A stretch of DNA of 64,000 bases from an archaeon (GCA_043808285.1 JAZDFA010000007.1:29100-93099), one strand, 5' to 3'; shown: positions 16,788-58,425, counted from the stretch's first letter. A program made the numbers and translations. The notes: a model not told the origin generated them from the letters alone.

Positions 16788-16918
16788 TGTCAAGAACACT
16801 CGACAACTCATGTGTTCTTGAGCACAAAAAAATCATTTGGATTTTCTGTGCCGAAAATTCATTAGGAATTTCCTTGCATCCTAAAATTCCTAAAATCAAC
16901 TAGAGGAATTTTTTGATA
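16788..16918 (-). mobile_element. Modular hairpin element, copy 1 (modules A-B-C)
   Basis: Reverse complement matches 43648-43820 (ATCAAAAAATTCCT..GGAATTTTAGGATGCAAGGAAATTC..TCAAGAACAC..GTGTTCTTGACA). Confidence 0.8.
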
Positions 16919-17012
16919 CAAAATAAAATTGCTATGATGTTCTTGAAAGAATAATTTTAGGGGGAGAAACCGAATACAAAATATTTATAAAGCATATTTT
17001 TATGATTAAAAT

Positions 17013-17375
17013 ATGAAAGGAAGAAAAATTTCTGGTGGAAAATACAGAAGCATAAGAAAGAAGAAACACTACGAAATGCCTGGCAAAGTGAGGCAGGTAA
17101 AGCTTAGCAAGGAAAAGAAAAAAGAGATGAGGGTGAGGGGTGGAGATGTAAAGACAGTGCTTCTTGCTGCTGACAAAGTTAATATTATTGACCCAAAGAC
17201 AAAAAAATGCAAGAGAGTTTCTATAAAGAATGTAGTTGAAACGCCGTCTAACAGATTCCTTTCAAGACAAAACGTGATAACAAAGGGCGCAATAATCGAC
17301 ACAGATTTAGGAAAGGCAAGAGTAACAAACAGGCCAAGCCAAGAAGCAGTTATAAATGCCGTATTGATTGAGTAA
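17013..17375 (+). CDS. rps8e: 30S ribosomal protein S8e
   Basis: RVRGG; NVITKGAIIDTDLGKARVTNRPSQ. Confidence 0.95.
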   Translation: MKGRKISGGKYRSIRKKKHYEMPGKVRQVKLSKEKKKEMRVRGGDVKTVLLAADKVNIIDPKTKKCKRVSIKNVVETPSNRFLSRQNVITKGAIIDTDLGKARVTNRPSQEAVINAVLIE

Positions 17376-17492
17376 GAAGAAGAATTTTTTTCTAAGAAAA
17401 GCAGTTTATAAAGATTCCGAAAGGTTTATAAATAATCATAGGAAATATTTATAAATACTTAAAAAAACCTTTTAAAAACTTCTTTTAAAGAA

Positions 17493-18431
17493 ATGGTTAC
17501 ACAATTCATAAAAAAATGCCCGGAATGCGGAAGCATAAGCCTCATGCATGACGAACAGAGGGGAGAAATTATCTGCAATGACTGTGGGTTAGTAGTAGAA
17601 GACAAGATGATTGATATGGGCCAGGAGTGGAGCCATTCTGAAGAGGGTGAGAAAAAGGGAAGGGGTGGGGCTCCAATGAGCATGCAAAAGTTCGACAAGG
17701 GGCTTACAACCAACATAGGAGAGATTTCTGATATATACAAGCTAGAAGGAGCAAAACAAACCAGAAAATTCTTAAGGCTAAAGAAATGGCAAGAAAGAGT
17801 TTCAACAAGCATTGAGAGAAATCTAAGATTGGCGATGTCTGAATTAAGAAGAGTCGCATCATATCTGAGTCTGCCAAATGTTGTGAGAGAAGAGGCTTCA
17901 AGAGTTTATAATTTTGTATTGCAAAGAGGATTTGTAAGAGGCAGGAGCATGGAATCAGTAATTGCTGCTTGCATTTATGCTGCATGTAGAAGCTACAATA
18001 TCCCAAGAACATTGGACGAGATTGCGGTTGCATCAGATGTTGAAAGAAAAGAAATCGGAAGAACTTTCAGATTCATAACAAGAAAGCTGGCTATTAAAGT
18101 TACCCCCTCAAACCCCAAGGATTACATTTCTAGATTCTCTTCAATACTTCATTTGTCCCCTAAAACTCAAAATGATGCGTTAAAGATACTCAAAAAAGCA
18201 GAGAATTCTGAATTAACAAGCGGGAGAGGTCCTGCAGGGATTGCTGCAGCAGCGTTGTATGTTTCAGCATTGTTAAACAACGAAAAGAAAACACAAAGGG
18301 AAGTGGCAGATGTCGCAGGAATAACTGAAGTAACAATAAGAAACAGGTACAAAGAACTTCTTGACAAGCTTGATCTGGGAGATAAATTAAGAATAAAAGA
18401 AGCTGAAGGAAAAGAAGGCAAGAAGAAGTAA
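17493..18431 (+). CDS. tfb: Transcription initiation factor IIB
   Basis: CPECGS..CNDCG zinc ribbon; two cyclin folds; TQREVADVAGITEVTIRNRYKEL. Confidence 0.97.
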   Translation: MVTQFIKKCPECGSISLMHDEQRGEIICNDCGLVVEDKMIDMGQEWSHSEEGEKKGRGGAPMSMQKFDKGLTTNIGEISDIYKLEGAKQTRKFLRLKKWQERVSTSIERNLRLAMSELRRVASYLSLPNVVREEASRVYNFVLQRGFVRGRSMESVIAACIYAACRSYNIPRTLDEIAVASDVERKEIGRTFRFITRKLAIKVTPSNPKDYISRFSSILHLSPKTQNDALKILKKAENSELTSGRGPAGIAAAALYVSALLNNEKKTQREVADVAGITEVTIRNRYKELLDKLDLGDKLRIKEAEGKEGKKK

Positions 18432-18487
18432 TGCTAGTTGCAAACGTTATTTCCCACAAGCATTTTGTTTATAAATAATTTTTACAT

Positions 18488-18892
18488 ATGATTATTATGC
18501 CAAAATTGACCGATAAAATTTCCATGTTAGAAGAAAAATTTGCAAAGAAAATAGGAGATATAAAAATCCCTGTTCCGGGTGATGGAATAAAAGGAGAAAT
18601 AAATGTCCAGGAATTGCTGCTTAAAATGGGTAATTCTTTTGTTGACATATACTATAAGGGAGATGCACAAAAATGTGATTACCTCAAAAAGGTCTTGAAG
18701 ACAAAATTATACCCCGCAATTGATTATATCATGACAGAGAAAGAAATTTCTTTGCTTAATGAAGAGGCAAATAAAATATACGAGAAAATCAAGACCAAGC
18801 TCAAATCAGAAAAGGATACATATGGCAAGGGAAGGGCATTAAAGATTATTGATAAAGCCTGCGAGCATAAAGTCAAAGGAATTTCAAGCTAA
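18488..18892 (+). CDS. Hypothetical protein
   Basis: 134-aa ORF with TATA (TTTATAAA) just upstream; no motif recognised. Confidence 0.6.
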   Translation: MIIMPKLTDKISMLEEKFAKKIGDIKIPVPGDGIKGEINVQELLLKMGNSFVDIYYKGDAQKCDYLKKVLKTKLYPAIDYIMTEKEISLLNEEANKIYEKIKTKLKSEKDTYGKGRALKIIDKACEHKVKGISS

Positions 18893-19782
18893 ATTTCAAT
18901 ATTCATAAAATCTTGAGCGAGTTGTGTTTGTGGAAATATGTTTTTTGCACTTTTTAGGAGTTTGTATTCCTCTTTTTCATGCCTTTGAGAAACATGAGTT
19001 AAAATAAGCTTCTTTGCATTTGCTTTTTTTGCTATGTTTGCTGCATCCTCGCAGGTAAGATGATGATATTCTGCTGCCTTGTCTTTCATTTCTGCAGAAT
19101 AGCTTGATTCAATTATCGCTAAATCTGCTTCTTTAGCTGCTTTAATGCAATTTACATTCATTGAAGTGTCCAAAACAAATGATATCTTTTTTCCTTTTTC
19201 AATATAAGAAACACTTTCCGACTTCACTTTTTTTCCATTAAAAACAATTGATTCGCCTTTTTGCAATTTTCCAACTAATGGTCCAGACAGTCCTATTTTT
19301 TTTAATTTTTTAGGGTCTATTCTTCGTTTTTCTTTTTCAGTGAAGGAATATGCATTACAGGGAGGCCCATGTGTAAGGGGGAATGCTTCAAGAATAAAAT
19401 CCTTATTCTCAAAGAATTTACCGCTTGCTTCAATCACTTCTATGTTAATCTTGCCTACGAACACAAAAAGGCTGAATATGTTCTCCATGAACCTTTTTGT
19501 TCCTTGAGGGCCATAAATTGACAGCTTCTTATTGTATCCGTTTAACACAAGAGTTTGCAGCAGCCCAGGAATACCCAGGATATGATCTCCGTGCCAGTGA
19601 GTTATAAGTATCTTTGTAAGACTGCAGGGATTTATTCCTGCAATTCTAAACTGCCTTTGTGTACCTTCCCCGCAATCAACAAGAATTGACTCTTCCTTAT
19701 ACTTGAAGAATATTGCAGTGTGGTTTCTTTTGGAAGTTGGCACTGCCTGGGATGTGCCTAAAAATATTAAGTCGATTTTCAT
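18889..19782 (-). CDS. rnz: Ribonuclease Z
   Basis: FLGTS..VP; DCGEGTQRQ; THWHGDH; LILTH. Confidence 0.95.
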   Translation of the reverse strand: MKIDLIFLGTSQAVPTSKRNHTAIFFKYKEESILVDCGEGTQRQFRIAGINPCSLTKILITHWHGDHILGIPGLLQTLVLNGYNKKLSIYGPQGTKRFMENIFSLFVFVGKINIEVIEASGKFFENKDFILEAFPLTHGPPCNAYSFTEKEKRRIDPKKLKKIGLSGPLVGKLQKGESIVFNGKKVKSESVSYIEKGKKISFVLDTSMNVNCIKAAKEADLAIIESSYSAEMKDKAAEYHHLTCEDAANIAKKANAKKLILTHVSQRHEKEEYKLLKSAKNIFPQTQLAQDFMNIEI

Positions 19783-19855
19783 TGCTTTAAAAAGAAACCT
19801 TTTCTTAAATAACTTTCTGCTAACATTTAAATATATTCTTTAGTTCTCGTTGATA

Positions 19856-20401
19856 ATGAAACCAAAAAAGAAGCCGGCAAGGGATAGTGCATTCAAGGCA
19901 GTTCTTAGCGGAGAGAAAATATTCAGCAATGCACATGGTGCTTTTACACTGCATGAACAAAGCAGTTTTGGAGAGCCAATAGAGGGCAAGGTATATTATT
20001 CAGTAATAGAATCGCTATACTTAATAGAAAAAGGAAAGATGCAGATGTACTTGGGTGGCAAAAAAGTTTCTTTCGATTCATTCCTTGAAAAATCCCAAAA
20101 GATTGAGAATAATGTTCATACTAGATTTATAGTATTTCGGGACATGAGGAACAAGGGATACACTTTAAAGACTGCATTAAAATTTGGAGCAGATTTTAGA
20201 GTTTATGAAAGGGGAGTAAAACCTGGGCAGGAGCATGCAAAATGGATTCTTTACGCAGTGCATGAAACAGTGGGATTAACATGGCATGAATTTGCAGCTA
20301 AAAATAGAGTAGCCCATTCAACAAAAAAAAGGCTGTTAATAGGAATTGTAGACGATGAAAATGATGTGACCTACTACGAAATTGCCTGGAAAAAACCATA
20401 A
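19856..20401 (+). CDS. endA: tRNA-intron endonuclease
   Basis: KTALKFGADFRVY..H; RVAHSTKK catalytic Y/H/K. Confidence 0.95.
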   Translation: MKPKKKPARDSAFKAVLSGEKIFSNAHGAFTLHEQSSFGEPIEGKVYYSVIESLYLIEKGKMQMYLGGKKVSFDSFLEKSQKIENNVHTRFIVFRDMRNKGYTLKTALKFGADFRVYERGVKPGQEHAKWILYAVHETVGLTWHEFAAKNRVAHSTKKRLLIGIVDDENDVTYYEIAWKKP

Positions 20402-20413
20402 AACAAAGAAAAA

Positions 20414-21349: not shown

Positions 21350-21350
21350 A

Positions 21351-21530: not shown

Positions 21531-21587
21531 TACTTAAGCAATAAGTGATTGCTTTAACAACAGTAAACAAAAATAACAGGAGGTAAA

Positions 21588-21890: not shown

Positions 21891-21930
21891 AAATACATTT
21901 AAAAAATCAAATCTTTTTTTTGTTTTTTTA

Positions 21931-22296: not shown

Positions 22297-22306
22297 TTGA
22301 GTTAAA

Positions 22307-23487: not shown

Positions 23488-23489
23488 TT

Positions 23490-32024: not shown

Positions 32025-32157
32025 TTAATTGCCGAAATTAAATACTGTAATGATGCAAAACAAGAAAGAAAAACCCATCTAACTGCCCCACTCCTACACT
32101 GCTAAATGGAATACAGCAATTAACAATCCACTAAGATAGAAAAAAACAATTCCCCAG
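32025..32157 (-). pseudogene. Possible decayed membrane-protein fragment truncated by the repeat element
   Basis: Minus frame WGIVFFYLSGLLIAVFHLAV*EWGS*MGFSFLFCIITVFNFGN*, abutting element copy 2. Confidence 0.3.
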
Positions 32158-32245
32158 ATCAAAAAGTTGCTCTGGTGCTATTGTGACACAAATGGCAACT
32201 TTAGGATGATCAAGAACACACGAGTTTTGTTAAGTGTTCTTGACA
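32158..32245 (+). mobile_element. Modular hairpin element, copy 2 (A'-C)
   Basis: ATCAAAAAGTTGC..GCAACTTTAGGATG ATCAAGAACAC..GTGTTCTTGACA. Confidence 0.75.
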
Positions 32246-32282
32246 TAAAAAGATTTATTAGGGATATTTCTTTTGTTCATAA

Positions 32283-38815: not shown

Positions 38816-41275
38816 ATGGACATTGCAGCAATAGAGAAAAAATGGCAGGAAGAATGGGATAACTCGCATGTATTTGAAAGTGAAGCAGGAGGGGGGCAAA
38901 AATATTATGTATTGGAGATGTTTCCATATCCTTCTGCATCAGGATTGCACATGGGCCATGCATTCAATTATACAATCGGAGATGTATATGGGAGATTGAA
39001 AAGAATGCAGGGATATAATGTCCTCTACCCTATGGGCTATGATTCGCTGGGGCTGCCTGCAGAGATTGCTGCAATAAACAAGGGTATTAATCCTAAAGAG
39101 TATACTGATGAAGCAATTTCAAATTTCATAAGGCAGCAGAAGGCACTGGGGTTAAGCTATGACTGGAGAAGGGAAGTAAGAACGCATAATCCAGATTATT
39201 ACAAATGGGACCAATGGATTTTTCTTAAGATGTTTGAAGGGGGAATAGCCTATAGGAAAAATTCTGCAGTAAACTTTTGCCCGCTATGCAATTCAGTTCT
39301 TGCAAATGAGCAAGTGCATGATGGAAAATGCTGGAGGCATAAAGAAAAAGTTGAGATAAGGCAGCTTGAGCAGTGGTTCTTCAAGATTACAGATTATGCA
39401 GATGAATTATATGAATCAATAAATGAATTGAAAGAATGGCCCGCAGACATAAAAGCGATGCAAAAAAACTGGATTGGAAAAAGCTGGGGAACCGAGATAC
39501 TTTTTGAGATAAATGGAAAGAAATGGCCAATATTCACAACAAGACCTGACACAGTTTATGGCGTAACATTCATGGTTGTTTCTGCGCAGCATCCAAAGTT
39601 AATGGAATTGGTTACAAAAGAGCATGAAGGAGAGGTTAATGAATTCTTAAAAAAAATAAAATCAACAAGTGAAAAAGACTATGAAGAATTGGAAAAAGAG
39701 GGCGCATTCACCGGAAGCTATGCAATAAATCCTAGCACTAATGAAAAAATCCCAATTTATGCAGGGAATTTTGTATTGGCAGATTATGGAAGCGGGATAG
39801 TAATGGCTGTTCCGGCGCATGACCAAAGAGACTTTGAATTTGCAAAGAAATATGGAATCAGGATAAAATTAGTCATACAACCAAAAAATCAAAGAATCGA
39901 AGCCGAAAAAATGGAGGAGGCATTCAGCGAAGAAGGATTCCTTGTAAATTCAGAGATGTTTAATGGAATGGAAAGCGCAAATGCAAAAGAAGCAATAACA
40001 ACTCATCTTCAAAAATTGGGCTTTGGAAAAAAGACAATACAATACAAGCTAAGAGATTGGCTTGTTTCAAGGCAAAGATACTGGGGAACACCCATCCCGA
40101 TAATATATTGCGATAAATGCGGGGCTGTGCCAGTGCCAGACAAAGACCTTCCTGTAATTCTTCCTGACAAAGTCGAGTTTGGAAAAGGGAATCCTCTTGA
40201 AACAAATTCATCTTTTGTAAATGTAAAATGCCCCAAGTGCAATGCAAATGCAAAAAGGGAAACTGATACAATGGATACTTTCGTAAATTCATCATGGTAT
40301 TTCTTAAGGTATTGCGATGCAAAAAATGAAAAAGAAATTTTTGGCAAGGACAAGGCAAAATATTGGATGCCAATTGACTGCTACATTGGAGGAAAAGAGC
40401 ATGCTTGCATGCACCTGATTTATTTCAGGTTTTATACAAAGTTCTTAAGAGACATTGGAGTTATTGATTTTAATGAGCCTGCTGTAAAATTGTTTAACCA
40501 AGGGATGGTTCATGGTGTTGACGGATCAGTGATGTCAAAATCAAGAGGCAATGTTATCGACCCTCTTGAAATGATAAGCAGATATGGCGCAGATACGCTA
40601 AGATTTTATCTTGTTTGCAATGCATCTGCAGACAAGGATTTCTTGTGGGGAGAGGAAAGCATTGAAGGCAGCTTTAGATTTGTAAAAAAAGTAATAGACT
40701 ATTTTGAAAAAGTAAAGTTTGGAAAATCCGGCCCAAGGGTGGAGAGCAAATTCAACCAGGCGATAAAGGATATAACTGCAGATGTTGAAAGCTTTAGATA
40801 CAATCTTGCAATAATAAAGATAAGAACATTTTTTGATTATCTTGGGGAAGAAGAAAACAGGATGGTTGTTGAGGGATTCCTCAAAATTCTTTCAATATTC
40901 TGCCCGCATATCTGCGAGGAGTTATGGCATGCACTTGGAAACAAGAATTTCATAAGTTTGCAAGAATGGCCAGCCAGCGATGAAAGCAAGATAAATCCAG
41001 AGATAGAAAAAAGAGAGCAGGAAATTTCAAAGACAATTGAGGACATAAGAAACATAGTCAAAATAATGAAGGAAAAGCAAGGCAAGGAGGCAAATACTGC
41101 TTATCTTTATATCATTCCCAAAGAGATTAGTAATTACAATGAGTCTATCCTAGACATGAAAAGGGTGCTAAATATAGAAATTAAAGCTTTTGCAAACAAT
41201 GATCCTTCAAAGCATGACCCTGCAAGTAAAGCAGGGAAGGCTAAACCGGGTAAGCCTGCGATATATATTGAGTAA
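38816..41275 (+). CDS. leuS: Leucine--tRNA ligase, bacterial type
   Basis: LEMFPYPS..LHMGH; FTTRPDT; SRQRYWGTPIP; VMSKS. Confidence 0.96.
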   Translation: MDIAAIEKKWQEEWDNSHVFESEAGGGQKYYVLEMFPYPSASGLHMGHAFNYTIGDVYGRLKRMQGYNVLYPMGYDSLGLPAEIAAINKGINPKEYTDEAISNFIRQQKALGLSYDWRREVRTHNPDYYKWDQWIFLKMFEGGIAYRKNSAVNFCPLCNSVLANEQVHDGKCWRHKEKVEIRQLEQWFFKITDYADELYESINELKEWPADIKAMQKNWIGKSWGTEILFEINGKKWPIFTTRPDTVYGVTFMVVSAQHPKLMELVTKEHEGEVNEFLKKIKSTSEKDYEELEKEGAFTGSYAINPSTNEKIPIYAGNFVLADYGSGIVMAVPAHDQRDFEFAKKYGIRIKLVIQPKNQRIEAEKMEEAFSEEGFLVNSEMFNGMESANAKEAITTHLQKLGFGKKTIQYKLRDWLVSRQRYWGTPIPIIYCDKCGAVPVPDKDLPVILPDKVEFGKGNPLETNSSFVNVKCPKCNANAKRETDTMDTFVNSSWYFLRYCDAKNEKEIFGKDKAKYWMPIDCYIGGKEHACMHLIYFRFYTKFLRDIGVIDFNEPAVKLFNQGMVHGVDGSVMSKSRGNVIDPLEMISRYGADTLRFYLVCNASADKDFLWGEESIEGSFRFVKKVIDYFEKVKFGKSGPRVESKFNQAIKDITADVESFRYNLAIIKIRTFFDYLGEEENRMVVEGFLKILSIFCPHICEELWHALGNKNFISLQEWPASDESKINPEIEKREQEISKTIEDIRNIVKIMKEKQGKEANTAYLYIIPKEISNYNESILDMKRVLNIEIKAFANNDPSKHDPASKAGKAKPGKPAIYIE

Positions 41276-41294: not shown

Positions 41295-43619
41295 ATGTAC
41301 AAAAGAAGAATTTTAGCAATAATTGCAGTGATTTTTATTTTAAATTTCTTCCAAGCTGTTTCTGCAAGCACATATTATATTTCCCAAAGCGGGAATGACA
41401 GTAATGATGGGCTCACAGAAACTACTCCTTGGGGGACGATGAATAAGATAATCACTACAACATTTGAGCCAGGAGATGTAATAAAATTCAAGACAGATGA
41501 GACCTGGCAGGAATATCTCAATTTCGAATCTTCTGGCACAGAAGCAAACCCGATCAAAATAACTTCCTATGGTGGGGGGGCAAAACCAATTATCGTGGGA
41601 GGAATAAGATTTTATGCTTTCCCTCAAATGCATGATGTTATTGTTGATGGTTTTGAATTGGATGGCACTGCTATAAGAGATCCTCTAGGGCTTGAAGCGG
41701 CATACCGCATAACTATCTGGAATAATATTCTTGATGCCAAAAATTTTGCAGGAAGAAGCGGGGTAGTGATTGGCTCGAAAGAGGAGAGTATCTCGAATGA
41801 TAATCTTATTGCAGATAATATGATAATTAATTGCGGCAATGACAGCAGCCCTTATGGAGTTGGTGTACAGATTACCGGAGGCTCATCTTATAACACTGTG
41901 GTAAACAACACAATATTAAACTGTGTTGAAGTGGGCCTGCAAACATATTCTACAGTTGGTGCAGCCCCCTGCAGAAATAATTTTTTTATAGGAAACAAGA
42001 TAAAAACAGACTGGACAGACAAAAGTAGCTGCATAAATTTTGGATGGATGTCTGAGAATAATATTGCAGAGCATAATTATTGCGAGAACACTCATCATGG
42101 TATAGACATAGATTCTGCAATTTCTGCGGTAAATATCTATCGAAATAATATAGTATACAATTCTATGGAGCTTGCAGTAATAATGGCAAATAGCTATGGC
42201 AACTCTGGCTATTCAATAATTGAAAATAACACATTCATAGCAGGACCTGCAACAGTAAAGGGAGTGTGGTATGTTAATTATTCCAGTTATACAGGCATGG
42301 GCCACATCTTTAGAAACAATATTGTTACTGCAATACAGTCATGGTGGCCAGTATTGATCATTGGAGAAGGGATGCAAGTGCAAAGCGATTACAATTTGTT
42401 CTGGGGCCCAGTTGCTTTAAGGATAGAATATAATGGAAAAGCGTACAGCTCATTAAGTGAATACCAAAATGCCTCAAATAAAGATATACACTCTGTTTTT
42501 TCAGACCCTATGATTACTGATATTGCGAATTCGAATTTTACGCCGCAATACAACAGCCCAGCCTGCATCGCATCTGACTATGCAAAATATAAAGGAGCAT
42601 TACAATGTTCATATAACAGTGTAATTCCAATTCAGAAAAAAACATGCAGCGAAATGGGAGGTGCATGTTTTTCTTCATGCAGCAGCCATAATAACTGCAG
42701 CAGTGCAGATTATACCTGCAATAGCGGAATCTGCTGCATGGGGGCGTGTTCTGCAATAATCTGCATTGATGCAGATGGTGATAAATATAATGCAAGTGCA
42801 CCAGGATGTGGGATAGCTGACTGCAATGAAACAAATGCAGAGATAAACCCTTCAAAAGAGGATATTTGCAACAGCAATCTTGATGAAGACTGTGATGGAG
42901 AGGACAAAAGATGCAAGATAATTTACAATATTGGACCTATCAAAGAGAGTGAAAAGATTTCAAAACAGATTGGAATAAACGAAACAATTGAGTTTGAAGT
43001 AGAAACATTGCAATACAGCATAAAGCTTCTTGAAATAACTGCTGATGAAATAAAGATAGAGATAAGGGCAAGGAAAATAACCAGCATTACTGGAAATATA
43101 ATCTCAATTATTACTGGGCAGGCATATGGAGAATATGGAGATTATGGAGAAGAGGAAGTGTACCTGATTGTTTCGCTTAGAAGAGGGGAATCCCGCTCTT
43201 TTGATATGAATAAAGATGGAATTTATGAAGTGAGGATAAATGCCAATACAATAGCAGAAAATACAGCCAGTATTGAAGTAGAAAGAATAAATGAAAGGGT
43301 AGAGATACCCCCAGTAACAGATTTAGAACAGCAGCAGCCTCTGTCTCAACAAACTGGGAAAGAGATTATTTGCGGGGATTCAAAATGCAGCAGCGGTGAA
43401 ACTGCCTCCAATTGCTGCATTGACTGCGGCTGCGCAATGGGAGAAGAATGCAAAAGCAATCAATGCGTTGTAACTCAAAAAGCGACTGCCACCCAGATAA
43501 ACAACTTGATGATTGCATCATTAGCTTCACTCCTGTTCATAGGAGTAATAATCTACATAGTCTATTCAAAAATGCAAAAAGACCGGGAAGAAATTGAAGG
43601 AATGCTTGAAAAGTATTAA
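41295..43619 (+). CDS. Membrane-anchored surface protein with right-handed beta-helix (pectin lyase-like) and Cys-rich modules
   Basis: Signal peptide; TYYISQSGNDSNDG..PW; NN-ladder repeats; DADGD..DCNETNAEINP..DEDCDG motif; C-terminal TM. Confidence 0.85.
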   Translation: MYKRRILAIIAVIFILNFFQAVSASTYYISQSGNDSNDGLTETTPWGTMNKIITTTFEPGDVIKFKTDETWQEYLNFESSGTEANPIKITSYGGGAKPIIVGGIRFYAFPQMHDVIVDGFELDGTAIRDPLGLEAAYRITIWNNILDAKNFAGRSGVVIGSKEESISNDNLIADNMIINCGNDSSPYGVGVQITGGSSYNTVVNNTILNCVEVGLQTYSTVGAAPCRNNFFIGNKIKTDWTDKSSCINFGWMSENNIAEHNYCENTHHGIDIDSAISAVNIYRNNIVYNSMELAVIMANSYGNSGYSIIENNTFIAGPATVKGVWYVNYSSYTGMGHIFRNNIVTAIQSWWPVLIIGEGMQVQSDYNLFWGPVALRIEYNGKAYSSLSEYQNASNKDIHSVFSDPMITDIANSNFTPQYNSPACIASDYAKYKGALQCSYNSVIPIQKKTCSEMGGACFSSCSSHNNCSSADYTCNSGICCMGACSAIICIDADGDKYNASAPGCGIADCNETNAEINPSKEDICNSNLDEDCDGEDKRCKIIYNIGPIKESEKISKQIGINETIEFEVETLQYSIKLLEITADEIKIEIRARKITSITGNIISIITGQAYGEYGDYGEEEVYLIVSLRRGESRSFDMNKDGIYEVRINANTIAENTASIEVERINERVEIPPVTDLEQQQPLSQQTGKEIICGDSKCSSGETASNCCIDCGCAMGEECKSNQCVVTQKATATQINNLMIASLASLLFIGVIIYIVYSKMQKDREEIEGMLEKY

Positions 43620-43647
43620 ACTCTTCTTTTTTTAATTGATTATGAAT

Positions 43648-43820
43648 ATCAAAAAATTCCTTGAGTTTTACCACACCCTAAAGGGTGTGGTTTGCTTGGA
43701 ATTTTAGGATGCAAGGAAATTCTTTTGAATTTCCTGCGCAGAAAATCTAGTAAGATTTTCTTGTGTTCAAGAACACAACTACACACTAAAGTGTGTAGTT
43801 TGTGTCAAGTGTTCTTGACA
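43648..43820 (+). mobile_element. Modular hairpin element, copy 3 (A-B-C with two nested CTAAAG hairpins)
   Basis: Matches copies 1 and 6; nested palindromes at 43670-43691 and 43777-43800. Confidence 0.85.
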
Positions 43821-43838
43821 TCAAATTAAATTCTGCAA

Positions 43839-44005
43839 ATCATAAAGTTGTTGAGTTTTACTGCACACTAAAGTGTGCGCGTACAACTTCGCGAAAAGCA
43901 AAACTTTTCGGGACCCTGAAAAACAAGAATGTTTTTCTTGGTTAGGATTCTCAAGAACATACTACCATATACTTTAGTATGTGGTTTTTGTCAAGTGTTC
44001 TTGAA
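43839..44005 (+). mobile_element. Modular hairpin element, copy 4 (A'-B'-C)
   Basis: CGCGAAAAGC..CTTTTCGGG..CCTGAAAAAC..GTTTTTCTTG shared with copy 5; TCAAGAACA..TGTTCTTGA shared with copies 1-3. Confidence 0.8.
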
Positions 44006-44055
44006 ATCAATAAAGTTTATAAATTCCATATTCAAGCCACTAATAGGAGAAAATA

Positions 44056-50218: not shown

Positions 50219-50533
50219 TATTGCCTCTGATAGAAAGGAGGTTTAATAAATTTTTTGTCAACAAATAGAAACAACCACGTGGATTAATAAATTTTTAAAA
50301 CAACATAAATTAATATTTTTAATTTAGTGGTTGGCTTGTGATGGGGGGAAGATGTTTTAGTAAAAAAGTACAAATTGAATTCTTTTCTGGCTTCAAAATG
50401 GTTGAGAGGTGAATTTGAGTTATGCGTAAAGAAACAATTCAAGTATGAAAGAAAACTCAATCTGCAAAACCAAAGAAAAACCATTGCGTAACCTTACTCT
50501 ATAACTGCTTAATTTCACGTCAATTAGAAAACG

Positions 50534-52631: not shown

Positions 52632-52647
52632 ATTCTATTTTATCATG

Positions 52648-52798
52648 ATAAAAACCTCATTAACTTTTGGTTTCCGCGAAAAGCAAGCTTTTCGGGGTCC
52701 TGAAAAACCCTTTGGTTTTTCTTGATTAGTATGATCCAAAATTAAACCACTAACTAAAAACTGCACAATTTTTAAAGTGTGGTTTCAATTTATAGACA
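52648..52798 (+). mobile_element. Modular hairpin element, copy 5 (A''-B'-D), ending on the rhomboid ATG
   Basis: B' shared with copy 4; D (ATCCAAAATTAAACCAC..GTGTGGTTTCAATTTAT.GACA) shared with copy 6. Confidence 0.8.
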
Positions 52799-53442
52799 TG
52801 ATAAAAAAACAAGGAAGAAGTCTAACATTCTCATTGATTATTGCAAATGTAGCAGTTTTTGCAATATGGCTTTTTTTACTTTTGTTTAAATTGGATATTA
52901 GCAGATATCTTGCCGTTGTTCCTAATGCAATACTGCAGGGAAAAGATATATGGACGATAATAACAAGCGTGTTCATGCATGCCTCGGTGGGGCACTTGCT
53001 GATGAACATGATGAGCCTTGCATTTTTGGGAAATTTTCTTGAAAGAATCTTGGGGAGAAAAAGATTTTTTATATTTTACATGCTAGCTGGAATATTTGCA
53101 TCATTATTCTTTGTCTTCTTTGCATTTCTTTTCAAGCAAGACCTAAATATAGGTGCAGTTGGAGCTTCTGGAGCAATATTTGGGATAGCAGGATTGATTG
53201 CAATATTAACCCCTCAGCTGCCCGTTTACATAATGTTCATACCAATAGCAATGCCCATGTGGATTGCATCCTTTGTGATATTGATAGTTATGTGGCTCTT
53301 ATCTCTTGTTGCCGGACTGCCTATAGGCAACAGCGCGCATCTTGGAGGATTAATTACGGGAATGGCGTATGGATTTTACCTTAAAAAAAGATATCCCAGA
53401 AAAGTAATGCTTCTAAACAAATACCTTATGGGCAGGCATTGA
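52798..53442 (+). CDS. Rhomboid family intramembrane serine protease
   Basis: TSVFMH..HLLMNM; VGASGAIFG; AHLGG. Confidence 0.95.
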   Translation: MIKKQGRSLTFSLIIANVAVFAIWLFLLLFKLDISRYLAVVPNAILQGKDIWTIITSVFMHASVGHLLMNMMSLAFLGNFLERILGRKRFFIFYMLAGIFASLFFVFFAFLFKQDLNIGAVGASGAIFGIAGLIAILTPQLPVYIMFIPIAMPMWIASFVILIVMWLLSLVAGLPIGNSAHLGGLITGMAYGFYLKKRYPRKVMLLNKYLMGRH

Positions 53443-53491
53443 AAAAAGCAAGTATTTTAAAGTGAAATCTCTTTTACATTGAGAGAGAAAA

Positions 53492-53884
53492 ATGGGTGAC
53501 AATGAATTTGATGCATTCTCCAGCATGAGCGGGGAATTCAACACAAAAATTGCAGATATTGAAGGAAAATATGAGCTTCTTAGAGAAAGGATGCTACTCT
53601 CAAATGAAAGCTTCATAAAAAACCGCGACAATATACTTAAAGAGATGAGGATCATCAAAGAGGATGTAAGAGAAATAAAAACGGAGATAGAAAAATTAAA
53701 AGAGATTATGCAGCACATGAGTGCAGATTCAGAGGAGTATGCAAGAAAAGAAGAATTGAGGATACTTGAAAGATACATGAAATTATGGGAACCTCTCAAA
53801 TTTACAAGGGTTGATGAAGTAAAAAGAATGATCCAAGAGGCATTAGCTGGGCTAAAATCCGAGCATGAAGAGGTAAAAGTATAA
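53492..53884 (+). CDS. Hypothetical coiled-coil protein
   Basis: Heptads; YARKEELRILERYMKLWEP. Confidence 0.75.
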   Translation: MGDNEFDAFSSMSGEFNTKIADIEGKYELLRERMLLSNESFIKNRDNILKEMRIIKEDVREIKTEIEKLKEIMQHMSADSEEYARKEELRILERYMKLWEPLKFTRVDEVKRMIQEALAGLKSEHEEVKV

Positions 53885-53908
53885 AAACCACTATTTGTTT
53901 TTACTAGA

Positions 53909-54700: not shown

Positions 54701-54706
54701 TTTTTT

Positions 54707-55186
54707 CTACTTGTTTGCAAACCAGGAGATTACCCCGCCTATTGCAAAAAGCACAATTACTCCCAAAACAGAAGGGTTGGTTAAGAAACTCTTTATTTCT
54801 GATGTTGTACCAAGATTAAAAAAATGACTTATTGCGCTGCCAAAAACCTGCACGCCTGAAATGAGGAATATCAACAAGAGAACTGCTATCAATCCAAAGC
54901 TTACAACTGGGTTTTTTACCACCTCTTCTATATTCCCTCTTACAAAACCTATCAGAATAAGCATGAAGAAGACTGCAATAAGAAAAACAATTATCCAGGG
55001 AGTTACTGTTAATGTGTATTCTCTGGCATTTGGCGCAACAATAAAAATTATTGCAATTGCAAGGCTTAGCAAACTGTGAATAAATTTATTTTCTCCCAAA
55101 ATCTTTGTCTTACCAATCAATGCATATACTAATACATAAACAAATATGAAAACAAATATAGGCATTAATTCCGTGCTAGGTAACAT
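54707..55186 (-). CDS. Membrane protein, paralog 3 of 3
   Basis: PIFVFIFVYVLVYALIGKTKILG motif; ~5 TM. Confidence 0.8.
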   Translation of the reverse strand: MLPSTELMPIFVFIFVYVLVYALIGKTKILGENKFIHSLLSLAIAIIFIVAPNAREYTLTVTPWIIVFLIAVFFMLILIGFVRGNIEEVVKNPVVSFGLIAVLLLIFLISGVQVFGSAISHFFNLGTTSEIKSFLTNPSVLGVIVLFAIGGVISWFANK

Positions 55187-55218
55187 TTTTCCGTTTCTCC
55201 ATTAAAAATTACTTCTTT

Positions 55219-55725
55219 TCAGGCTGATTTAGGGTGCTTATTAGATAAAGAAAATGCAACAATGATTCCTACTAAGACAATTCCCCATACAACTATGTTG
55301 CCCCACTGCATCCACCACGAAGATGCCCCAATTGAAAATCCGCCCTGTGTTGATAATATAACAACAAAGAAGACTATGGCTGCTACAGAACCCAAGATTG
55401 TCATCCATATATTCTCGTTTTTATCTTTAACGATAAACAGACCCACTAGAATCATCAATGTTAACATTACTCCAACACCCATTCCTAATCTTGGAAAAAG
55501 CTCTGCAAAGAATCTTTGCATGAATTGCTGCTGCAATGCCAATAATCCTACAGATAATGCAACTATCATGTCTATTCCTGTCTTTCCGCCAAGAATCTTT
55601 GATTTGTTAAGAACTGCAAATATTACCGCGAATAATAAAAGAAATGGAAGAAATACTGAGAATAGCCCTTGAGTTTCCCATAATGCAACTAATGCATCGA
55701 GTTGAGTTGATCCATATGCTACCAT
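55219..55725 (-). CDS. Membrane protein, paralog 2 of 3
   Basis: LPFLLLFAVIFAVLNKSKILG motif; ~5 TM. Confidence 0.8.
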   Translation of the reverse strand: MVAYGSTQLDALVALWETQGLFSVFLPFLLLFAVIFAVLNKSKILGGKTGIDMIVALSVGLLALQQQFMQRFFAELFPRLGMGVGVMLTLMILVGLFIVKDKNENIWMTILGSVAAIVFFVVILSTQGGFSIGASSWWMQWGNIVVWGIVLVGIIVAFSLSNKHPKSA

Positions 55726-55765
55726 TTTGTTATGATGATATTTTCATTTATATACTTTTTTGTTT

Positions 55766-56284
55766 TTACTCTTTCTTGTCTCCCTTTGTGCTTGTAAACA
55801 AGATTGCAACCACTACTGCGGTAATTATTAAGAACACTATTGACTGAAATACTGGCGCATTGCCATCGCTCTTGAAGAATTGAGAAAGAACGGGAATTTT
55901 GCCGCTGCTCCATAGAATAGTCGAGATTAAAACAATTCCTACGATTATTCCTATTACAATTTGAAGGGTCTTATTTAATCCTCCATCCTGAATTAGAGCT
56001 CCTTCTTTTCCAGCTGTAAAGCCAACAAGAAGCATAAAAACAAAAATAACTATCGCGACAACAGCAACAACAGGGATTATGTCATTTATCATATCTCTTG
56101 TGACACCAACACCCACGATTATAAGCCCCATTGAAAGAGAAATAATGCTGTTTAACTGGTGCTTCTTTTCTCCCAGTATCTTTGATTTTTCAAGTATTGC
56201 GAAAAAAAGAGTGAAAACGAGAACAAATGGTATTACAACTTGGCTAAACCATTCAGCGCCGGTTATTGCTAGCCCATCAGCCAT
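55766..56284 (-). CDS. Membrane protein, paralog 1 of 3
   Basis: IPFVLVFTLFFAILEKSKILG motif; ~5 TM. Confidence 0.8.
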   Translation of the reverse strand: MADGLAITGAEWFSQVVIPFVLVFTLFFAILEKSKILGEKKHQLNSIISLSMGLIIVGVGVTRDMINDIIPVVAVVAIVIFVFMLLVGFTAGKEGALIQDGGLNKTLQIVIGIIVGIVLISTILWSSGKIPVLSQFFKSDGNAPVFQSIVFLIITAVVVAILFTSTKGDKKE

Positions 56285-56285
56285 T

Positions 56286-56582
56286 TTACTCTAGATGTTC
56301 ATCATGATGTTCCTCGGTTTCTTCCTTGCTTGGAACAGCTGACTTGCTTACAACTACAACGTCTCCGATTGCCTTGACAAATTGATGTGGAACTATCAAG
56401 CCCCTTGCCCCGCCTAAAAAGGGAGACAATGTGCTTTCTCTTGCGATTCTTATTCTCCACCCGTCAATCTTGTTTTCCAATAGATTGACTTCTTCAATTT
56501 CTCCGAAGTAGTCTCCACCATCAGTAAAAACTCTCATTCCGAGGATTTCAGATATTTTTCTTATCTTTAACATTTTTTCCAC
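56286..56582 (-). CDS. Stand-alone PRC-barrel protein (CdpB-like)
   Basis: SEILGMRVFTDGGDYFGEIEEV..IVPHQFVKAIGDVVVV. Confidence 0.85.
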   Translation of the reverse strand: MEKMLKIRKISEILGMRVFTDGGDYFGEIEEVNLLENKIDGWRIRIARESTLSPFLGGARGLIVPHQFVKAIGDVVVVSKSAVPSKEETEEHHDEHLE

Positions 56583-56798
56583 CTCTGTGTTATATTACTG
56601 TGCTTAAAAGTTATTTATATACTTTTCCATTTTTTTAGAGATAAATGGGGTTGGGAGGGGGAAAGTTCTAAACCAAAACATTTTGTTTATAGGCAGGAGG
56701 TGGAGTTTTTTAGATTAGATGAAAAATAATAAACCAATTGGGAGGGGATTTCATATTCTGTTAACTGACTCTAGATATAAATCCTGCAACTGGCTTTT

Positions 56799-57461
56799 TT
56801 ATACGAGACTTTCTGCGATTATAATGTCTAGAGGATATGTAATCTTTAAATTTTTCCTTGTACCTAAAACCATTTTGACTTTGTAACCTCTTCTCTCAAC
56901 TAAAGAAGCGTCATCTGTTCCTGTATATTTATCTTTAAATGCAAGATTATGTGCTTCATTTAGCAAGTCATATCTGAATCCTTGCGGTGTCTGTATCTCC
57001 CAGAGGAAATCTCTGTCAAGAGTTTCTTCAACAAAATCTCTCCCCTTTTTGATGGTGTCTCTTAACGGTATGGCTGGAATTGCAGCACCATATTCCTTGG
57101 CTGCCTGAAATATCTTTCTAACAAGACCCAGTGTAATAAATGGCCGTGCAACATCATGCACTAAAACATATTCTGAATTTGAGATGCTTCTGATTGCTTT
57201 GTAAACAGATTCCTGCCGGGTTTTGCCTCCTGAAATAATCCTATACTTCTTATCAAATCTGAGCCCATCAACAATATGTTCTGCATCTTCTATCTTATTT
57301 TTGTTAACAACTACTATAATCTCATCAATAAACCTGCAATTATTGAATATTCCTAATGAATAGCTTAGTAGGGGCTTATTTCCTAAAATTAGGAATGGTT
57401 TGTGCTTTTTTCCGATTCTTGTTCCTTTGCCAGCCCCCAATAAGATTGCAGTGTTTGCCAT
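56799..57461 (-). CDS. IspD/TarI-family cytidylyltransferase
   Basis: GAGKGTR; GGKTRQESV; VHDVARP; IQTPQGF; TDDASL; NLKIT. Confidence 0.9.
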   Translation of the reverse strand: MANTAILLGAGKGTRIGKKHKPFLILGNKPLLSYSLGIFNNCRFIDEIIVVVNKNKIEDAEHIVDGLRFDKKYRIISGGKTRQESVYKAIRSISNSEYVLVHDVARPFITLGLVRKIFQAAKEYGAAIPAIPLRDTIKKGRDFVEETLDRDFLWEIQTPQGFRYDLLNEAHNLAFKDKYTGTDDASLVERRGYKVKMVLGTRKNLKITYPLDIIIAESLV

Positions 57462-57558
57462 TAGGATAATATTCTCTGATAAGCTATAAAAGATTGCCTA
57501 TATCCTCCTTAAAAAAAATAATCGCAACATTTATAAAAAAATATCAACTGGATTAAAT

Positions 57559-58260
57559 ATGTTCAAAGCAAAAGAGTTGGTTTATATTATATTAGCAAGC
57601 GCGGTAATAGGATATGTTATCTCTTTCTCAAGCATAAGCTGGGAGAATTGGGCCAAATTTGCAGTATTAGGATTTGCAATGCTTATGATAAATGTTATTG
57701 CAAAAAAAATTGCCGCTTACAAACTTGGATGCGAAATAGAAATGGAGCCATGGCAGGCAAAAAGGTATTGGTTTTATGAATCTGCACATATAAGATATGG
57801 CATTCCAATGTGGGTGGTATGGCCAATTTTTATGGTGTGGGCAAGTCTTGGATTAGTATGGTGGCTTGTTGTAATGACTTTTGAGGTTTATGCAACAAGG
57901 GCAAGAGTGGGAAGAAAGTTTGCAGAGCTTACTGAATGGGATATTGCACTGATTGCATCGGCAGGAATTGTAACAAATCTTGTTGTAGCAGTGATATTTG
58001 CGGCAAGAGGAGACATTACTTTCGCTTACATGAATCTTTGGTTTGTATTTTTCAATCTTATTCCTTTCCCCGCATATGACGGGGGGAAAATATTCTTTGG
58101 AGAAGCTCTTTTTTATGTGTTTATAGCAACAATAAGCCTTATAGTTATCTTCCTGCTGCATATAACCACTAATATCCCAATAATAACAGTAACCTCTCTT
58201 CTTTCCGGGATAATGGCAATATTTGTATTCTATCATGTATTTGAAAGGCCATTGAAGTAG
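57559..58260 (+). CDS. M50/S2P-like membrane protein lacking HExxH
   Basis: AGIVTN and FNLIPFPAYDGGKI motifs present; expected HExxH position reads NVIAK. Confidence 0.7.
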   Translation: MFKAKELVYIILASAVIGYVISFSSISWENWAKFAVLGFAMLMINVIAKKIAAYKLGCEIEMEPWQAKRYWFYESAHIRYGIPMWVVWPIFMVWASLGLVWWLVVMTFEVYATRARVGRKFAELTEWDIALIASAGIVTNLVVAVIFAARGDITFAYMNLWFVFFNLIPFPAYDGGKIFFGEALFYVFIATISLIVIFLLHITTNIPIITVTSLLSGIMAIFVFYHVFERPLK

Positions 58261-58297
58261 AGAGCTTTATAAATTTGCAAATGCATTTTTCAATTAA

Positions 58298-58425
58298 ATC
58301 AAAAAATTCCTTGAGTTTTACCACACCCTAAAGGGCGTGGTTTGCTTGAAATTTTAGGATGATCCAAAATTAAACCACAAACAAAAACTCCACACTTAAA
58401 AAAGTGTGGTTTCAATTTATGGACA
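58298..58425 (+). mobile_element. Modular hairpin element, copy 6 (A-D), ending on the helicase ATG
   Basis: A nearly identical to copy 3 including the nested hairpin; D shared with copy 5. Confidence 0.85.

Follow-up and report, generated by a model that had tools for sequence, protein, structure and literature searches.

Composite hairpin elements in the window

The window, a 64,000-nt stretch of an archaeal genome (GCA_043808285.1, JAZDFA010000007.1:29100-93099), carries six composite copies of a repeat family built from hairpin modules (Table 1). A preliminary description had placed the copies correctly except for small corrections of their boundaries, the module orders stand as it gave them, and every copy opens with AT and closes with AT. 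The degenerate unit it had suspected at about 16426-16458 proved to be a true solo A-type hairpin (z -3.30, 0/200 shuffles).

Table 1. Family members and loops of module D in the window, with their gene context
Feature	Position	Strand	Context
Solo A-type hairpin, TCATAAAAATCC..GGATTTT..GGCATCAT	16426..16458	-	Directly upstream of tRNA-Leu
Composite A-B-C	16787..16917	-	Between divergent LSM and S8e genes
Composite A'-C	32158..32246	+	37 nt upstream of ABC-ATPase gene start
Composite A-B-C	43648..43821	+	
Composite A'-B'-C	43839..44007	+	17 nt past element 43648..43821
Composite A''-B'-D	52645..52799	+	Between TFIIE-alpha gene stop and rhomboid gene
TATA-like loop of module D, TTTTTAAA	52769..52776	+	Ends 21 nt before ATG 52798
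Composite A-D	58298..58426	+	Between M50 peptidase and DEAD-box helicase genes
A/T-rich loop of module D, TTAAAAAA	58396..58403	+	Ends 21 nt before ATG 58425

The 3' end of the first composite (GACAT) lies 40 nt upstream of the LSM start. In the first of the two closely spaced elements an inner hairpin H, of the type CCACACCC-TAAA-GGGTGTGG, is found in both A and C, and in the second one the double-hairpin unit B' interrupts AACTT^TAGGAT. The A''-B'-D composite shares its last AT with the rhomboid ATG (52798-52800), and the A-D composite closes with ATGGACATG, which is in the reading frame of the helicase ORF. With up to one mismatch allowed, the window contains four occurrences of the 3' end motif GTGTTCTTGAMAT; 100 shuffles averaged 0.28, and none reached four.

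Census in the host genome

The host, a DPANN archaeon of the Woese/Pacearchaeota kind, has a genome of 865 kb with 35% GC (hereafter G000; 86% complete, with gene context taken from a crude longest-ORF caller). Three rounds of nhmmer yielded 178 non-overlapping module hits in 90 loci genome-wide, distributed over modules I (43), A (39), C (36), B (26), B' (23) and D (11), and blastn-short with the six window copies as queries (E<=1e-3) returned 210 HSPs. The elements mostly measure 83-233 nt, about 80-400 nt overall, and contain no ORF. Several contig ends fall inside family repeats, where the assembly breaks. Within the order, double-hairpin units are present in 38/151 genomes.

Anatomy and folding

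The 5' terminal hairpin of the elements belongs to the A types, opening with ATCAWAAA, and the 3' terminal hairpin is either of the C types (..TTGACAT) or D, which ends in TTTATGGACAT. Double-hairpin units of about 50 nt (B, B' and I) lie between or within the terminal hairpins, and these units as well as smaller hairpins also occur nested in other modules, either in a loop or at the foot. The only inverted match between the termini is a short and imperfect TCAARAA, which is not flush with the 3' end.

Folded as single-stranded DNA, all six copies form hairpin chains. Compared with 200 shuffles each, the z values were -5.59 for the copy 16787-16917, -8.78 for 43710-43820, -4.74 for 43839-43980 and -4.77 for 52645-52799, with no shuffle folding as well, and -3.33 for 32158-32246 and -2.79 for 58298-58426, with one shuffle as good in either case. 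The earlier statement that stems are kept and loops vary was borne out in 19 distinct B copies, in which 11 alifold pairs are 99% paired and the loops differ; these pairs cover the second hairpin only and include no two-sided changes. In an alignment of double-hairpin units (27 sequences, 22 distinct), 93.6% of the cells pair, two-sided changes occur at 7/18 pairs, and the covariation score was reached by 0/500 shuffles, slid controls being lower. Furthermore, the arms of the C-type end hairpin exist in several sequences, all of them still complementary: TCAAGAACAC (33 copies), TCAGAAATGC (6), TCAGAAATGT (4), TCGGAAATTG (2) and TCGGAAATTT (2), plus singles.

Nesting is seen in an A module that occurs in two forms, one carrying a 53-nt unit at CCCTAAA^GGG and one lacking it. 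Among strictly matched double-hairpin units, 20/30 lie directly 3' of CTAA or CTAAA, many of their hosts being copies of one module, and nested units show no target duplication. In the relative G004, whose assembly is one contig of 575 kb and has about 25 unit loci, the double-hairpin unit resides inside a family of long tRNA introns. In 3/3 examined introns the small nested hairpins have a cUUCGg tetraloop when read on the tRNA sense strand; the three introns are homologous copies and not independent cases.

The introns, their tetraloops and the covarying stems would suit an intron-like or structured-RNA family that spreads via transcripts, with DNA copies secondary and the units kept for folding, and D-ended copies, lying between co-directional genes, would indeed be transcribed. 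We regard such spread at the RNA level as quite improbable. Copies such as that at 16787-16917 separate divergent genes and precede the promoter-like TATA of the gene that follows, 24/57 C ends face gene stops, the insertion junctions are precise in DNA, and the homology of the three introns reduces their weight. Nor was an Rfam family matched: a search of the window recovered seven tRNAs and no other family at gathering score, and for 43600-44050 the best match reached 22.3 bits, below the cut-off of 46.7.

Mobility and insertion sites

Scanning of metagenomes with a C-hairpin pattern revealed 76 loci, taken with flanks of 4 kb, many of which are syntenic with G000 at 65-84% nucleotide identity. 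The comparison of filled and empty sites that the preliminary description had proposed showed differences in both directions. Modules were present in the metagenome contig and lacking in G000 in six site comparisons (L125, L131, L160, L172, L183 and L193; for example 209 nt vs 7 nt, and 141 nt vs 18 nt), and they were present in G000 and lacking in the contig in two clear cases, L129 (106 nt vs -5) and L198 (190 nt vs 29). At L129 the empty site reads GAG-AT-AATT, whereas the filled site, on C8 of G000, reads GAG-AT-(CAAAA..CCGAC AT)-AATC, and protein alignment places this element behind codon 8 of a gene whose ortholog in the relative is intact. At L198 the A-B'-D element on C13 of G000 separates a stop codon from an ATG; in the relative the distance between the two is 1 nt.

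L126 and 11 other loci have in common only an element of 123-142 nt (91-97% identity), their flanks being unrelated. Conversely, L155 and L178, with flanks 99.9-100% identical, differ by a hairpin indel of ~31 nt after CACTAAA inside the element. One orthologous site is filled in G000 and in three metagenome loci by different subfamilies, and one composite element adjoins a 5'-truncated tnpA copy. Filled and empty orthologous sites, together with element-only identity between unrelated loci, thus indicate that the positions are not fixed and that the elements move over evolutionary time, in agreement with the non-autonomous mobility proposed earlier.

At three base-resolved junctions AT is single in the empty site and stands on both sides when the site is filled, and the left flank is conserved in the AT and nothing beyond it. 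The setting is A/T-rich DNA, including the AT of start codons, first codons and junctions of tightly packed genes. The AT core of the preliminary description fits these junctions, which accord equally with a 2-bp duplication, an insertion between A and T and an insertion 3' of AT. With moderate confidence, we consider the family to be non-autonomous mobile DNA elements assembled from hairpin modules and inserting at AT. Whole elements would enter A/T-rich DNA at an AT dinucleotide, and double-hairpin units would go into hairpin loops, mostly directly after CTAA(A), with no duplication.

Module D and gene context

Away from contig ends, 9/9 module D copies end where an ORF on the same strand begins, and in 8/12 copies the TATA-like heptamer ends 21 nt before the ATG; the tRNA promoters of G000 (AAANNTTTAWAAA), read by eye, end 23-24 nt before the tRNA. 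D-ended elements mostly open with ATCATAAA, the mirror of TTTATGGACAT. On this placement, it is an evenly balanced prediction that module D acts as a promoter. Because its TATA-like loop is placed 21 nt upstream of the ATG, module D would most likely restore expression after insertion at a start codon, as a leaderless-type promoter.

The C-type ends (n=57) face a gene start in 33 cases and a gene stop in the others, and the uniform orientation seen in the window corresponds to a weak bias genome-wide. Of the start-facing C ends, 21/33 lie 14-81 nt upstream of starts, and TATA-like motifs occur within 30 nt downstream in 16/64 cases vs 2.7 expected from random positions, which are a weak control.

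Such regularities, along with the gene-start position of module D and the intergenic site filled in G000 and relatives alike, could be read as fixed regulatory or structural features (operators, terminators or insulators) inherited in place, with the repeats reflecting shared function. We hold this to be highly improbable: the reading is contradicted by orthologous sites that are filled on one side and empty on the other, with examples running either way, and it also has against it the copy inside a coding region, the 91-97% element-only identity of loci with unrelated flanks and the indel inside the element that separates near-identical strains.

Search for the mobilising enzyme

Searches of the whole genome for transposase families gave no match over cut-off inside the window, and Y1 (IS200/IS605-type) was the only transposase family over cut-off in the genome. 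The Y1 gene is multi-copy, with contig breaks inside its copies, and its HUH and Y motifs align with the IS200/IS605 structures 2f4f, 2ec2, 2xm3 and 2vhg. On either side of the full tnpA copy (C7:142420-143165) lie the left and right ends proper to it and a family-2 repeat instead of modules A-D. This IS200-like element is inserted after TTAAC in 3/3 copies, and no homology connects its ends with modules A, C or D. A likeness at the level of motifs only links the IS end hairpins (CC-TTTA-GG loop) and the ..AGGATG.. tail of the IS to hairpin H and the terminal part of module A.

Among four other genomes of the same taxonomic family, of which G004 is one, Y1_Tnp was found in none and the double-hairpin unit in all, and tblastn detected TnpA neither in G004 nor in any of the 76 metagenome loci. 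Across 41 relatives, Y1 occurs in 3/9 genomes with at least nine unit matches vs 6/32 of the others, which gives no clear link between unit load and Y1 among genomes whose kinship makes them non-independent. The HUH lead of the preliminary description held in so far as a Y1 gene exists elsewhere in the genome; on the other side, this gene is not flanked by modules, it was not found in the four family relatives, and PF04986 (Y2/IS91) matched nothing in the genome. The search with PF14214 (Helitron-type Rep), also without a match, is uninformative since its control matched in no genome. Movement of the elements as folded single strands handled in trans by a HUH Y1 transposase is conceivable, if on the doubtful side. 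A 2-nt target is short for the guide-based recognition of Y1, and AT on both sides of filled sites vs a single AT in empty ones is like the 2-bp duplication of cut-and-paste transposition.

The latter pattern, base-resolved at three junctions, would be expected of classical MITEs, moved by cut-and-paste through a DDE-type or other double-strand transposase with a 2-bp AT duplication, the hairpins being passengers or stabilisers. The enzyme would then read short imperfect terminal inverted repeats (5' ATCAARAA.. and ..TTYTTGACAT 3'). The inverted TCAARAA of the termini, the mirrored ends of most D-ended elements, the left flank not conserved past AT and the persistence of elements in genomes without Y1 all agree with this mechanism. 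Nevertheless, we find it doubtful. In the 86%-complete genome DDE_3, DDE_Tnp_1, rve and IS110 gave no match, and Resolvase scored below cut-off; no A..ORF..C arrangement encoding a transposase was found in the 76 metagenome loci with their 4-kb flanks; the inverted termini are offset from the element ends, and double-hairpin units lack any duplication. In addition, no family is known to make an AT duplication, which counts against cut-and-paste.

A more far-reaching version of the mobile-element interpretation, unlikely when taken as a whole, would see here a mobile DNA system of DPANN archaea that consists of hairpins only, nests within itself and has no dedicated transposase of known family. 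Both the ~50-nt double-hairpin units and the larger A..C/D composites would enter, as folded single strands, the exposed loops of other hairpins, tRNA introns and the AT of leaderless start codons, mobilised by a host enzyme or a still unrecognised nuclease, and one end module would have evolved a loop TATA box that re-promotes the interrupted gene. If true, the self-nesting element would be a portable promoter able to split operons in genomes of <1 Mb.

Comparison with known systems

By analogy, the family is of a MITE/BOX/BIME-like kind. In the available part of PMC3049150, MITEs are defined as short, non-coding, base-paired and multi-copy, with terminal inverted repeats and target duplication. 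The present elements are likewise short, non-coding, multi-copy, AT-rich and highly base-paired, and the only IS found, an IS200-like element, has ends that differ from the modules, whereas a MITE would have a resident IS with matching ends. No DDE family was found in the genome.

The BOX elements of Streptococcus pneumoniae and S. suis, arranged as boxA - boxB(n) - boxC, are, as far as the same partial source describes them (PMC3049150), composite repeats of intergenic DNA in which the 5' and 3' terminal modules are fixed and those in the middle are optional or variable, as in this family. Common to both are also different terminal modules combined with the same middle modules, predicted tight stem-loops, a potential to supply start codons or alter the expression of neighbours, and no assigned transposase (PMC3049150). 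Unlike the bacterial BOX, this family is archaeal and AT-bounded, its modules are nested in each other's loops, and one end module has an archaeal TATA-like box. The BOX sequences presumably differ from those found here, and the likeness is one of analogy only.

REP/BIME are proteobacterial mosaics with RAYT (Y1 HUH) transposases. With them the family shares intergenic palindromic units in mosaics, several subtypes and a Y1 HUH gene in the genome. Unlike in REP/BIME, the Y1 here is a multi-copy IS200-like gene with its own ends and a TTAAC target rather than a single repeat-flanked gene, there is no GTAG-type head, and relatives keep units without Y1. The suggested comparison with REP/BIME mosaics is apt as an analogy and does not extend to membership, Y1 being neither repeat-flanked nor co-occurring with the repeats (Y1 0/4, units 4/4). 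A survey of REP sequences makes, in its available portion, no mention of DPANN or RAYT (PMC12306157).

Palindrome-associated transposable elements (PATEs) derived from IS200/IS605 are similarly hairpin-rich, lack long inverted repeats and accompany an IS200/IS605 TnpA in the genome. They insert without duplication 3' of a short motif, a habit that the double-hairpin units, undoubled and mostly placed after CTAA(A), may share. Unlike PATEs, the elements have ends that are not homologous to resident IS ends beyond a motif-level likeness (CC-TTTA-GG, AGGATG), whole elements are AT-bounded on both sides, and TnpA was not found in unit-bearing relatives. As to the fixed 4-5 nt target of PATEs, 20/30 units follow CTAA/CTAAA, with many hosts representing one module, and whole elements have AT only.

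Helitrons begin with TC, end in CTRR with a subterminal hairpin, and insert between A and T. The elements do not agree with Helitron/IS91 in that the 3' end here is GACA and not CTRR and PF04986 gave no match; a 5' TC and insertion at A^T are possible. Correia elements have long terminal inverted repeats, a TA duplication and bacterial-type promoters. This family, without long inverted repeats, differs from them in being AT-bounded and in its archaeal TATA-like box. Small non-autonomous size, a 2-bp A/T target and, if module D acts as predicted, promoters for adjacent genes are common to both, in so far as the Correia elements (CE) of Neisseria are covered by the partial source (PMC3049150).

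Partial descriptions of mitochondrial double-hairpin or repetitive hairpin-forming elements provide another parallel, in the form of two-hairpin units of ~50 nt with no known enzyme, which colonise intergenic DNA, introns and other repeats, as the units do here. These elements belong to organelle genomes of fungi and sponges, have no sequence relation to this family and are compared by description only. Finally, a census of prokaryotic MITEs, whose available part describes no anatomy, modules, targets or promoter module, reports a 'Woesearchaea genome' among the highest archaeal densities, with 105 per Mb (PMC11602168), and a high MITE load in the group had thus already been noted.

Hairpin-only elements in the window and in the genome

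The six copies of a hairpin-only, AT-bounded repeat listed in the preliminary description were all found in the window, with slightly corrected boundaries and with the strings of interchangeable modules confirmed (Table). Each string opens with a 5' terminal hairpin of an A type and closes with a 3' terminal hairpin of a C type or D. Folded as single-stranded DNA, the copies form chains of hairpins with z-scores of -2.8 to -8.8 against 200 shuffles, in agreement with the all-hairpin build claimed for them, and the degenerate unit suspected at 16426-16458 proved to be a genuine solo A-type hairpin directly upstream of tRNA-Leu. The C-end motif occurs four times in the window versus 0.28 expected. 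No Rfam family reached its gathering score in the window, and a separate search of 43600-44050 gave nothing near gathering at E<=1. A genome-wide count with the six copies as queries returned 210 HSPs; profile searches revealed 178 non-overlapping module matches at 90 loci (I 43, A 39, C 36, B 26, B' 23, D 11), and a rule-based parse of 83 end motifs resulted in 50 start-to-end elements, mostly of 83-233 nt, about six of which are a C-variant hairpin alone.

The source genome (865,122 bases in 15 contigs, 34-37% G+C, marker completeness 86%) can be assigned to a DPANN archaeon, because the best relatives of its LeuRS gene, at 52-68% identity, come from MAGs labelled Pacearchaeota, Woesearchaeota or Nanoarchaeota. 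The LeuRS encoded at 38816-41275 of the window has a bacterial-type editing domain (PF13603) and, besides DPANN, many bacterial relatives at 40-51% identity (Saccharibacteria, Firmicutes, Spirochaetes). Genes with the Pfam domains Ribosomal_S8e, LSM and TFIIE_alpha adjoin elements. DPANN genomes are very small, tightly packed and usually held to be poor in mobile DNA; here a few percent of the 865-kb genome is made up of the hairpin-only elements plus a second family of repeats, and the hairpin elements break the assembly, several contigs ending within their repeats. GC skew in 20-kb bins tracked gene orientation and gave no replication signal against which element orientation could be tested.

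The second repeat family, termed family 2, is intergenic, about 150 nt long and unrelated to the hairpin elements (..CTGCAAAWCCAAAGAAA..CGTAASCCTTACTCTATAACTGCT..AATTAAC) with 103 nhmmer matches genome-wide, clustered in certain regions. Its copies form long same-orientation series whatever the direction of the genes, for example 15 consecutive '+' copies at 160-200 kb of contig C7, and insertions of the hairpin elements and of a resident IS200-like element (IS) lie within or next to it.

Locations of hairpin elements and associated features (window positions unless a contig or genome is named)
Feature	Location	Strand	Remarks
Element A-B-C	16787-16917	-	corrected boundary
Element A'-C	32158-32246		corrected boundary
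Element A-B-C	43648-43821		corrected boundary
Element A'-B'-C	43839-44007		corrected boundary
Element A''-B'-D	52645-52799		corrected boundary
Element A-D	58298-58426		corrected boundary
Family 2	50382-50533		full copy
Family 2	32048-32127		partial
IS200-like element	C7 ~142420-143165	-	full copy, tnpA only, 165 aa; outside the window
IS200-like element	C7:102989-103261; C5:5894-6028; contig ends of C3, C13, C14		C7 and C5, fragments; others, contig ends
tRNAs with unit-bearing introns	G004 (relative from another genus): 119806-120029, 305459-305710, 415222-415427, 524705-524885, 525087-525308		loci L100, L110, L115, L121

Module anatomy and nesting

Module A is a long hairpin that starts with ATCAWAAA and ends in ..TTAGGATG, and in module C a hairpin, TCAAGAACAC..GTGTTCTTGA, precedes CAT. 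The arms of C occur in several variants, all still complementary (TCAAGAACAC 33, TCAGAAATGC 6, TCAGAAATGT 4, TCGGAAATTG 2, TCGGAAATTT 2, plus singles), counted in an end-hairpin scan that allowed one mismatch and was noisy (155 of 4983 GA[CT]AT sites versus 31-102 of 2992-5601 at decoy motifs), and whose use was confined to the multi-copy arm types listed here. An inner hairpin, H (CCACACCC-TAAA or TTTA-GGGTGTGG), often lies within A, C and D, while B, B' and I are double-hairpin units of about 50 nt. One A module was encountered both with its H loop empty (window position 43648) and, on contig C6, interrupted precisely at CCCTAAA^GGG by an I unit of 53 nt, without duplication; B' is positioned within AACTT^TAGGATG. 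CTAA or CTAAA precedes 20 of 30 strictly matched I units; these do not amount to 20 independent events, as many units reside in copies of one and the same module. Smaller hairpins, themselves with UUCG or UGAA loops, are in turn nested in the loops of the units.

These mini-hairpins of about 25-31 nt were seen at C2:27342-27448 and C12:45287-45531 of the source genome and at many G004 loci. Those with a cUUCGg loop (..CCGTRAT-stem-TTCG-stem-CCTTGCCTG) have a string of 13 nt in common with the region at the right end of the IS; another type reads CCATC-TGAA/TGAT-GATGG. An interpretation of the small nested hairpins as K-turn or C/D-box motifs was dropped upon inspection by eye, the folds being plain hairpins with UGAA or UUCG loops.

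Stems had been described as kept while loops vary, and this holds for the second hairpin of module B, the only one recovered by alifold, in which 11 pairs are 99% paired among 19 distinct copies of the source genome with differing loops and no two-sided change. Alignment of 27 units (22 distinct) from the source genome and G004 gave 93.6% paired cells, two-sided changes in seven of 18 pairs, and a covariation score reached by none of 500 shuffles, slid controls being lower.

Filled and empty sites

Scanning of metagenome contigs with the C-hairpin DNA pattern revealed 76 loci, many of them syntenic with the source genome at 65-84% nucleotide identity; the TFIIE gene, used as query in a protein-based metagenome search, had yielded no relative. 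Sites were compared through colinear blocks of the source genome and the metagenome contigs, whose sequences were then read. At six sites (L125, L131, L160, L172, L183, L193) modules are present in the metagenome contig and absent from the source genome. L193 has 209 nt versus 7 nt between convergent stop codons, and L160 (3745-4133) has 389 nt where two genes of the source genome (C15:43220-43354) overlap in ATGA, which possibly represents an operon split by an element. In the L160 spacer, an element of A-unit-C composition precedes a TATA-like box and a new leader. The reverse case, modules in the source genome only, is clear at two sites (L129 and L198) and ambiguous at two more, which stand opposite long module-free gaps (L194 and the L156 group at C10:19229). 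The site at C10:16885 is filled in the source genome and in three metagenome loci, by different subfamilies.

Three junctions were read to the base (insertion in parentheses): GAG/AT/AATT in L129 versus GAG/AT(CAAAA..CCGAC/AT)AATC in the source genome, TAAA/AT/G in L198 versus ..AAAA/AT(CATAAAAACC..GGAC/AT)G in the source genome, and AGAAT/AT/GAAC in the source genome versus AGAATT/AT(GTCAAG..TATG/AT)ACG in L183. In flank logos AT was the sole conserved target, the 3' pattern being too loose (183 matches). The insertion opposite L129 lies within a gene (ortholog MLDNKEIEIIKRNIKRF..; frame in the source genome MLDNKNIE - element - IINKNMKRL..), the remainder of whose protein aligns with the ortholog along its length. 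L126 has only a 123-142-nt element (91-97%) in common with 11 other loci, the flanks being unrelated, and L155 and L178, with flanks 99.9-100% identical, differ by a hairpin of about 31 nt after CACTAAA inside the element. Metagenomes of the group around L126, L136, L154 and L180 contain near-identical A-C copies. At GACAT/AAAAAACATGAG a composite element directly adjoins a tnpA copy truncated at its 5' end.

Filled and empty sites, the check called for in the preliminary description, and element-only similarity between loci with unrelated flanks support the initial proposal: the elements are mobile and non-autonomous. The alternative, that the elements are fixed regulatory sites, is contradicted by the filled and empty sites, the intragenic copy, the element-only similarity and the within-element indel taken together. 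The elements part genes that overlap or adjoin in relatives, and one lies within the first codons of a gene; hence they offer a concrete, testable case of operon and promoter rewiring in reduced archaeal genomes.

Candidate mobilising enzymes

The Y1_Tnp domain (PF01797) gave three matches in the source genome, and tblastn five locations, of which two are contig ends. They belong to the IS, which is present in several copies and inside which the assembly breaks. The HUH (HIH) and Y motifs of its TnpA (C7:142465-142959) align with the IS200/IS605 transposase structures 2f4f, 2ec2, 2xm3 and 2vhg. In three of three copies the left end of the IS comes immediately after TTAAC, which in two cases belongs to the terminal ATTAAC of a family-2 repeat. 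The right end of the IS reads ..CCTTTAGGGTGGGGAGGATGTCAT; both ends contain an H-like hairpin with a CC-TTTA-GG centre, and the AGGATG tail resembles the end of module A, no homology between IS ends and modules being found beyond this hairpin and tail. The HUH lead of the preliminary description was thus borne out in part, by a multicopy Y1 gene; for the other enzymes, the whole genome gave no Y2, IS110, DDE_3, DDE_Tnp_1 or rve match, Resolvase stayed under the cut-off and the TnpB domain had only sub-threshold zinc-ribbon matches. One tyrosine recombinase was found. The Helitron search was uninformative, its control having matched in no genome.

Our leading, still doubtful, guess is that a Y1 enzyme would move the elements as single strands, and it is preferred because it accounts for the hairpin-only anatomy, the insertion into loops and the absence of duplication for units. 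Against it, Y1 was found in none of the four other genomes of the family, whereas all four have the double-hairpin unit, and neither G004 nor any of the 76 metagenome loci gave a Y1 match with tblastn. A hypothetical cut-and-paste enzyme producing a 2-bp AT duplication ranks nearly as high as the Y1 enzyme. The A and C/D ends together with the double-hairpin units provide a defined substrate set for finding the mobilising enzyme.

Gene context and module D

In gene-context counts, which rest on a crude ORF caller, 33 of 57 C-type ends are directed towards a gene start and 24 towards a gene stop; hence the orientation of elements, uniform in the window, is a weak bias genome-wide. The start lies 14-81 nt away in 21 of the 33 start-facing cases. 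All nine copies of module D away from contig ends finish at a same-strand ORF start; since the module terminates with an in-frame ATGGACATG, the offset is -8 in eight of them and -2 in the ninth. The adjoining genes are unrelated (rhomboid, DEAD-box helicase and others). In 8 of 12 copies the D loop contains a TATA-like heptamer whose end lies 21 nt upstream of the final ATG; upstream of the tRNAs of the same genome, AAANNTTTAWAAA boxes, read by eye, end 23-24 nt before the tRNA. D seems to provide promoter function for mRNAs that are leaderless or nearly so; with it, elements landing on a start codon, or in an operon junction as seen for L198 and contig C13, would be tolerable.

A consensus promoter box, AGCTTTATAAAT, is located within 58270-58297 of the window, its end lying 24 nt upstream of the 5' AT with which the A-D element begins (58298). 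Such a layout is consistent with insertion at the AT of a leaderless start codon, after which the old promoter, too, would transcribe the element. The suggestion that whole elements are BHB introns was unsupported, copies being located upstream of promoters.

Distribution and tRNA introns

The A-B-C copy at 43648-43820 has matches in 8 of 41 relatives, the source genome counted. G004, a single 575-kb contig, gave no A, C or D match and has about 25 loci of double-hairpin units, at least five of them inside long tRNA introns of one homologous family; an intron without the unit has the empty loop TTTAGAAAAG. The homologous long introns, of 108-170 nt, occur in different tRNAs, each with a double-hairpin unit, which suggests that the intron spread between tRNA genes. 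A covariance model detected the unit in 38 of 151 sampled genomes of the order (families f1, 4/4; f4, 10/24; f9, 17/106), the matches per genome being at least those found among up to 39 scored candidates each. Double-hairpin units are thus older and more widely distributed than the terminal modules. The presence of the unit in tRNA introns of a relative ties the intergenic repeats to the old question of archaeal tRNA intron gain.

Relation to known repeats

In literature on DPANN and Woesearchaeota tRNA introns, repeats, hairpins and MITEs we found no description of this element family. A MITE census places one Woesearchaea genome among the highest archaeal MITE densities (PMC11602168), and a survey of archaeal IS reports that IS200/IS605 is the IS family with the widest distribution in archaea (PMC13343696). 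Double-hairpin elements are on record in mitochondria. The closest architectural analogue is BOX (PMC3049150). The elements are a variant of the MITE/BOX/BIME kind in DPANN archaea and are distinguished by multi-level nesting, by AT-bounded insertion at gene starts and, probably, by a promoter-bearing end module.
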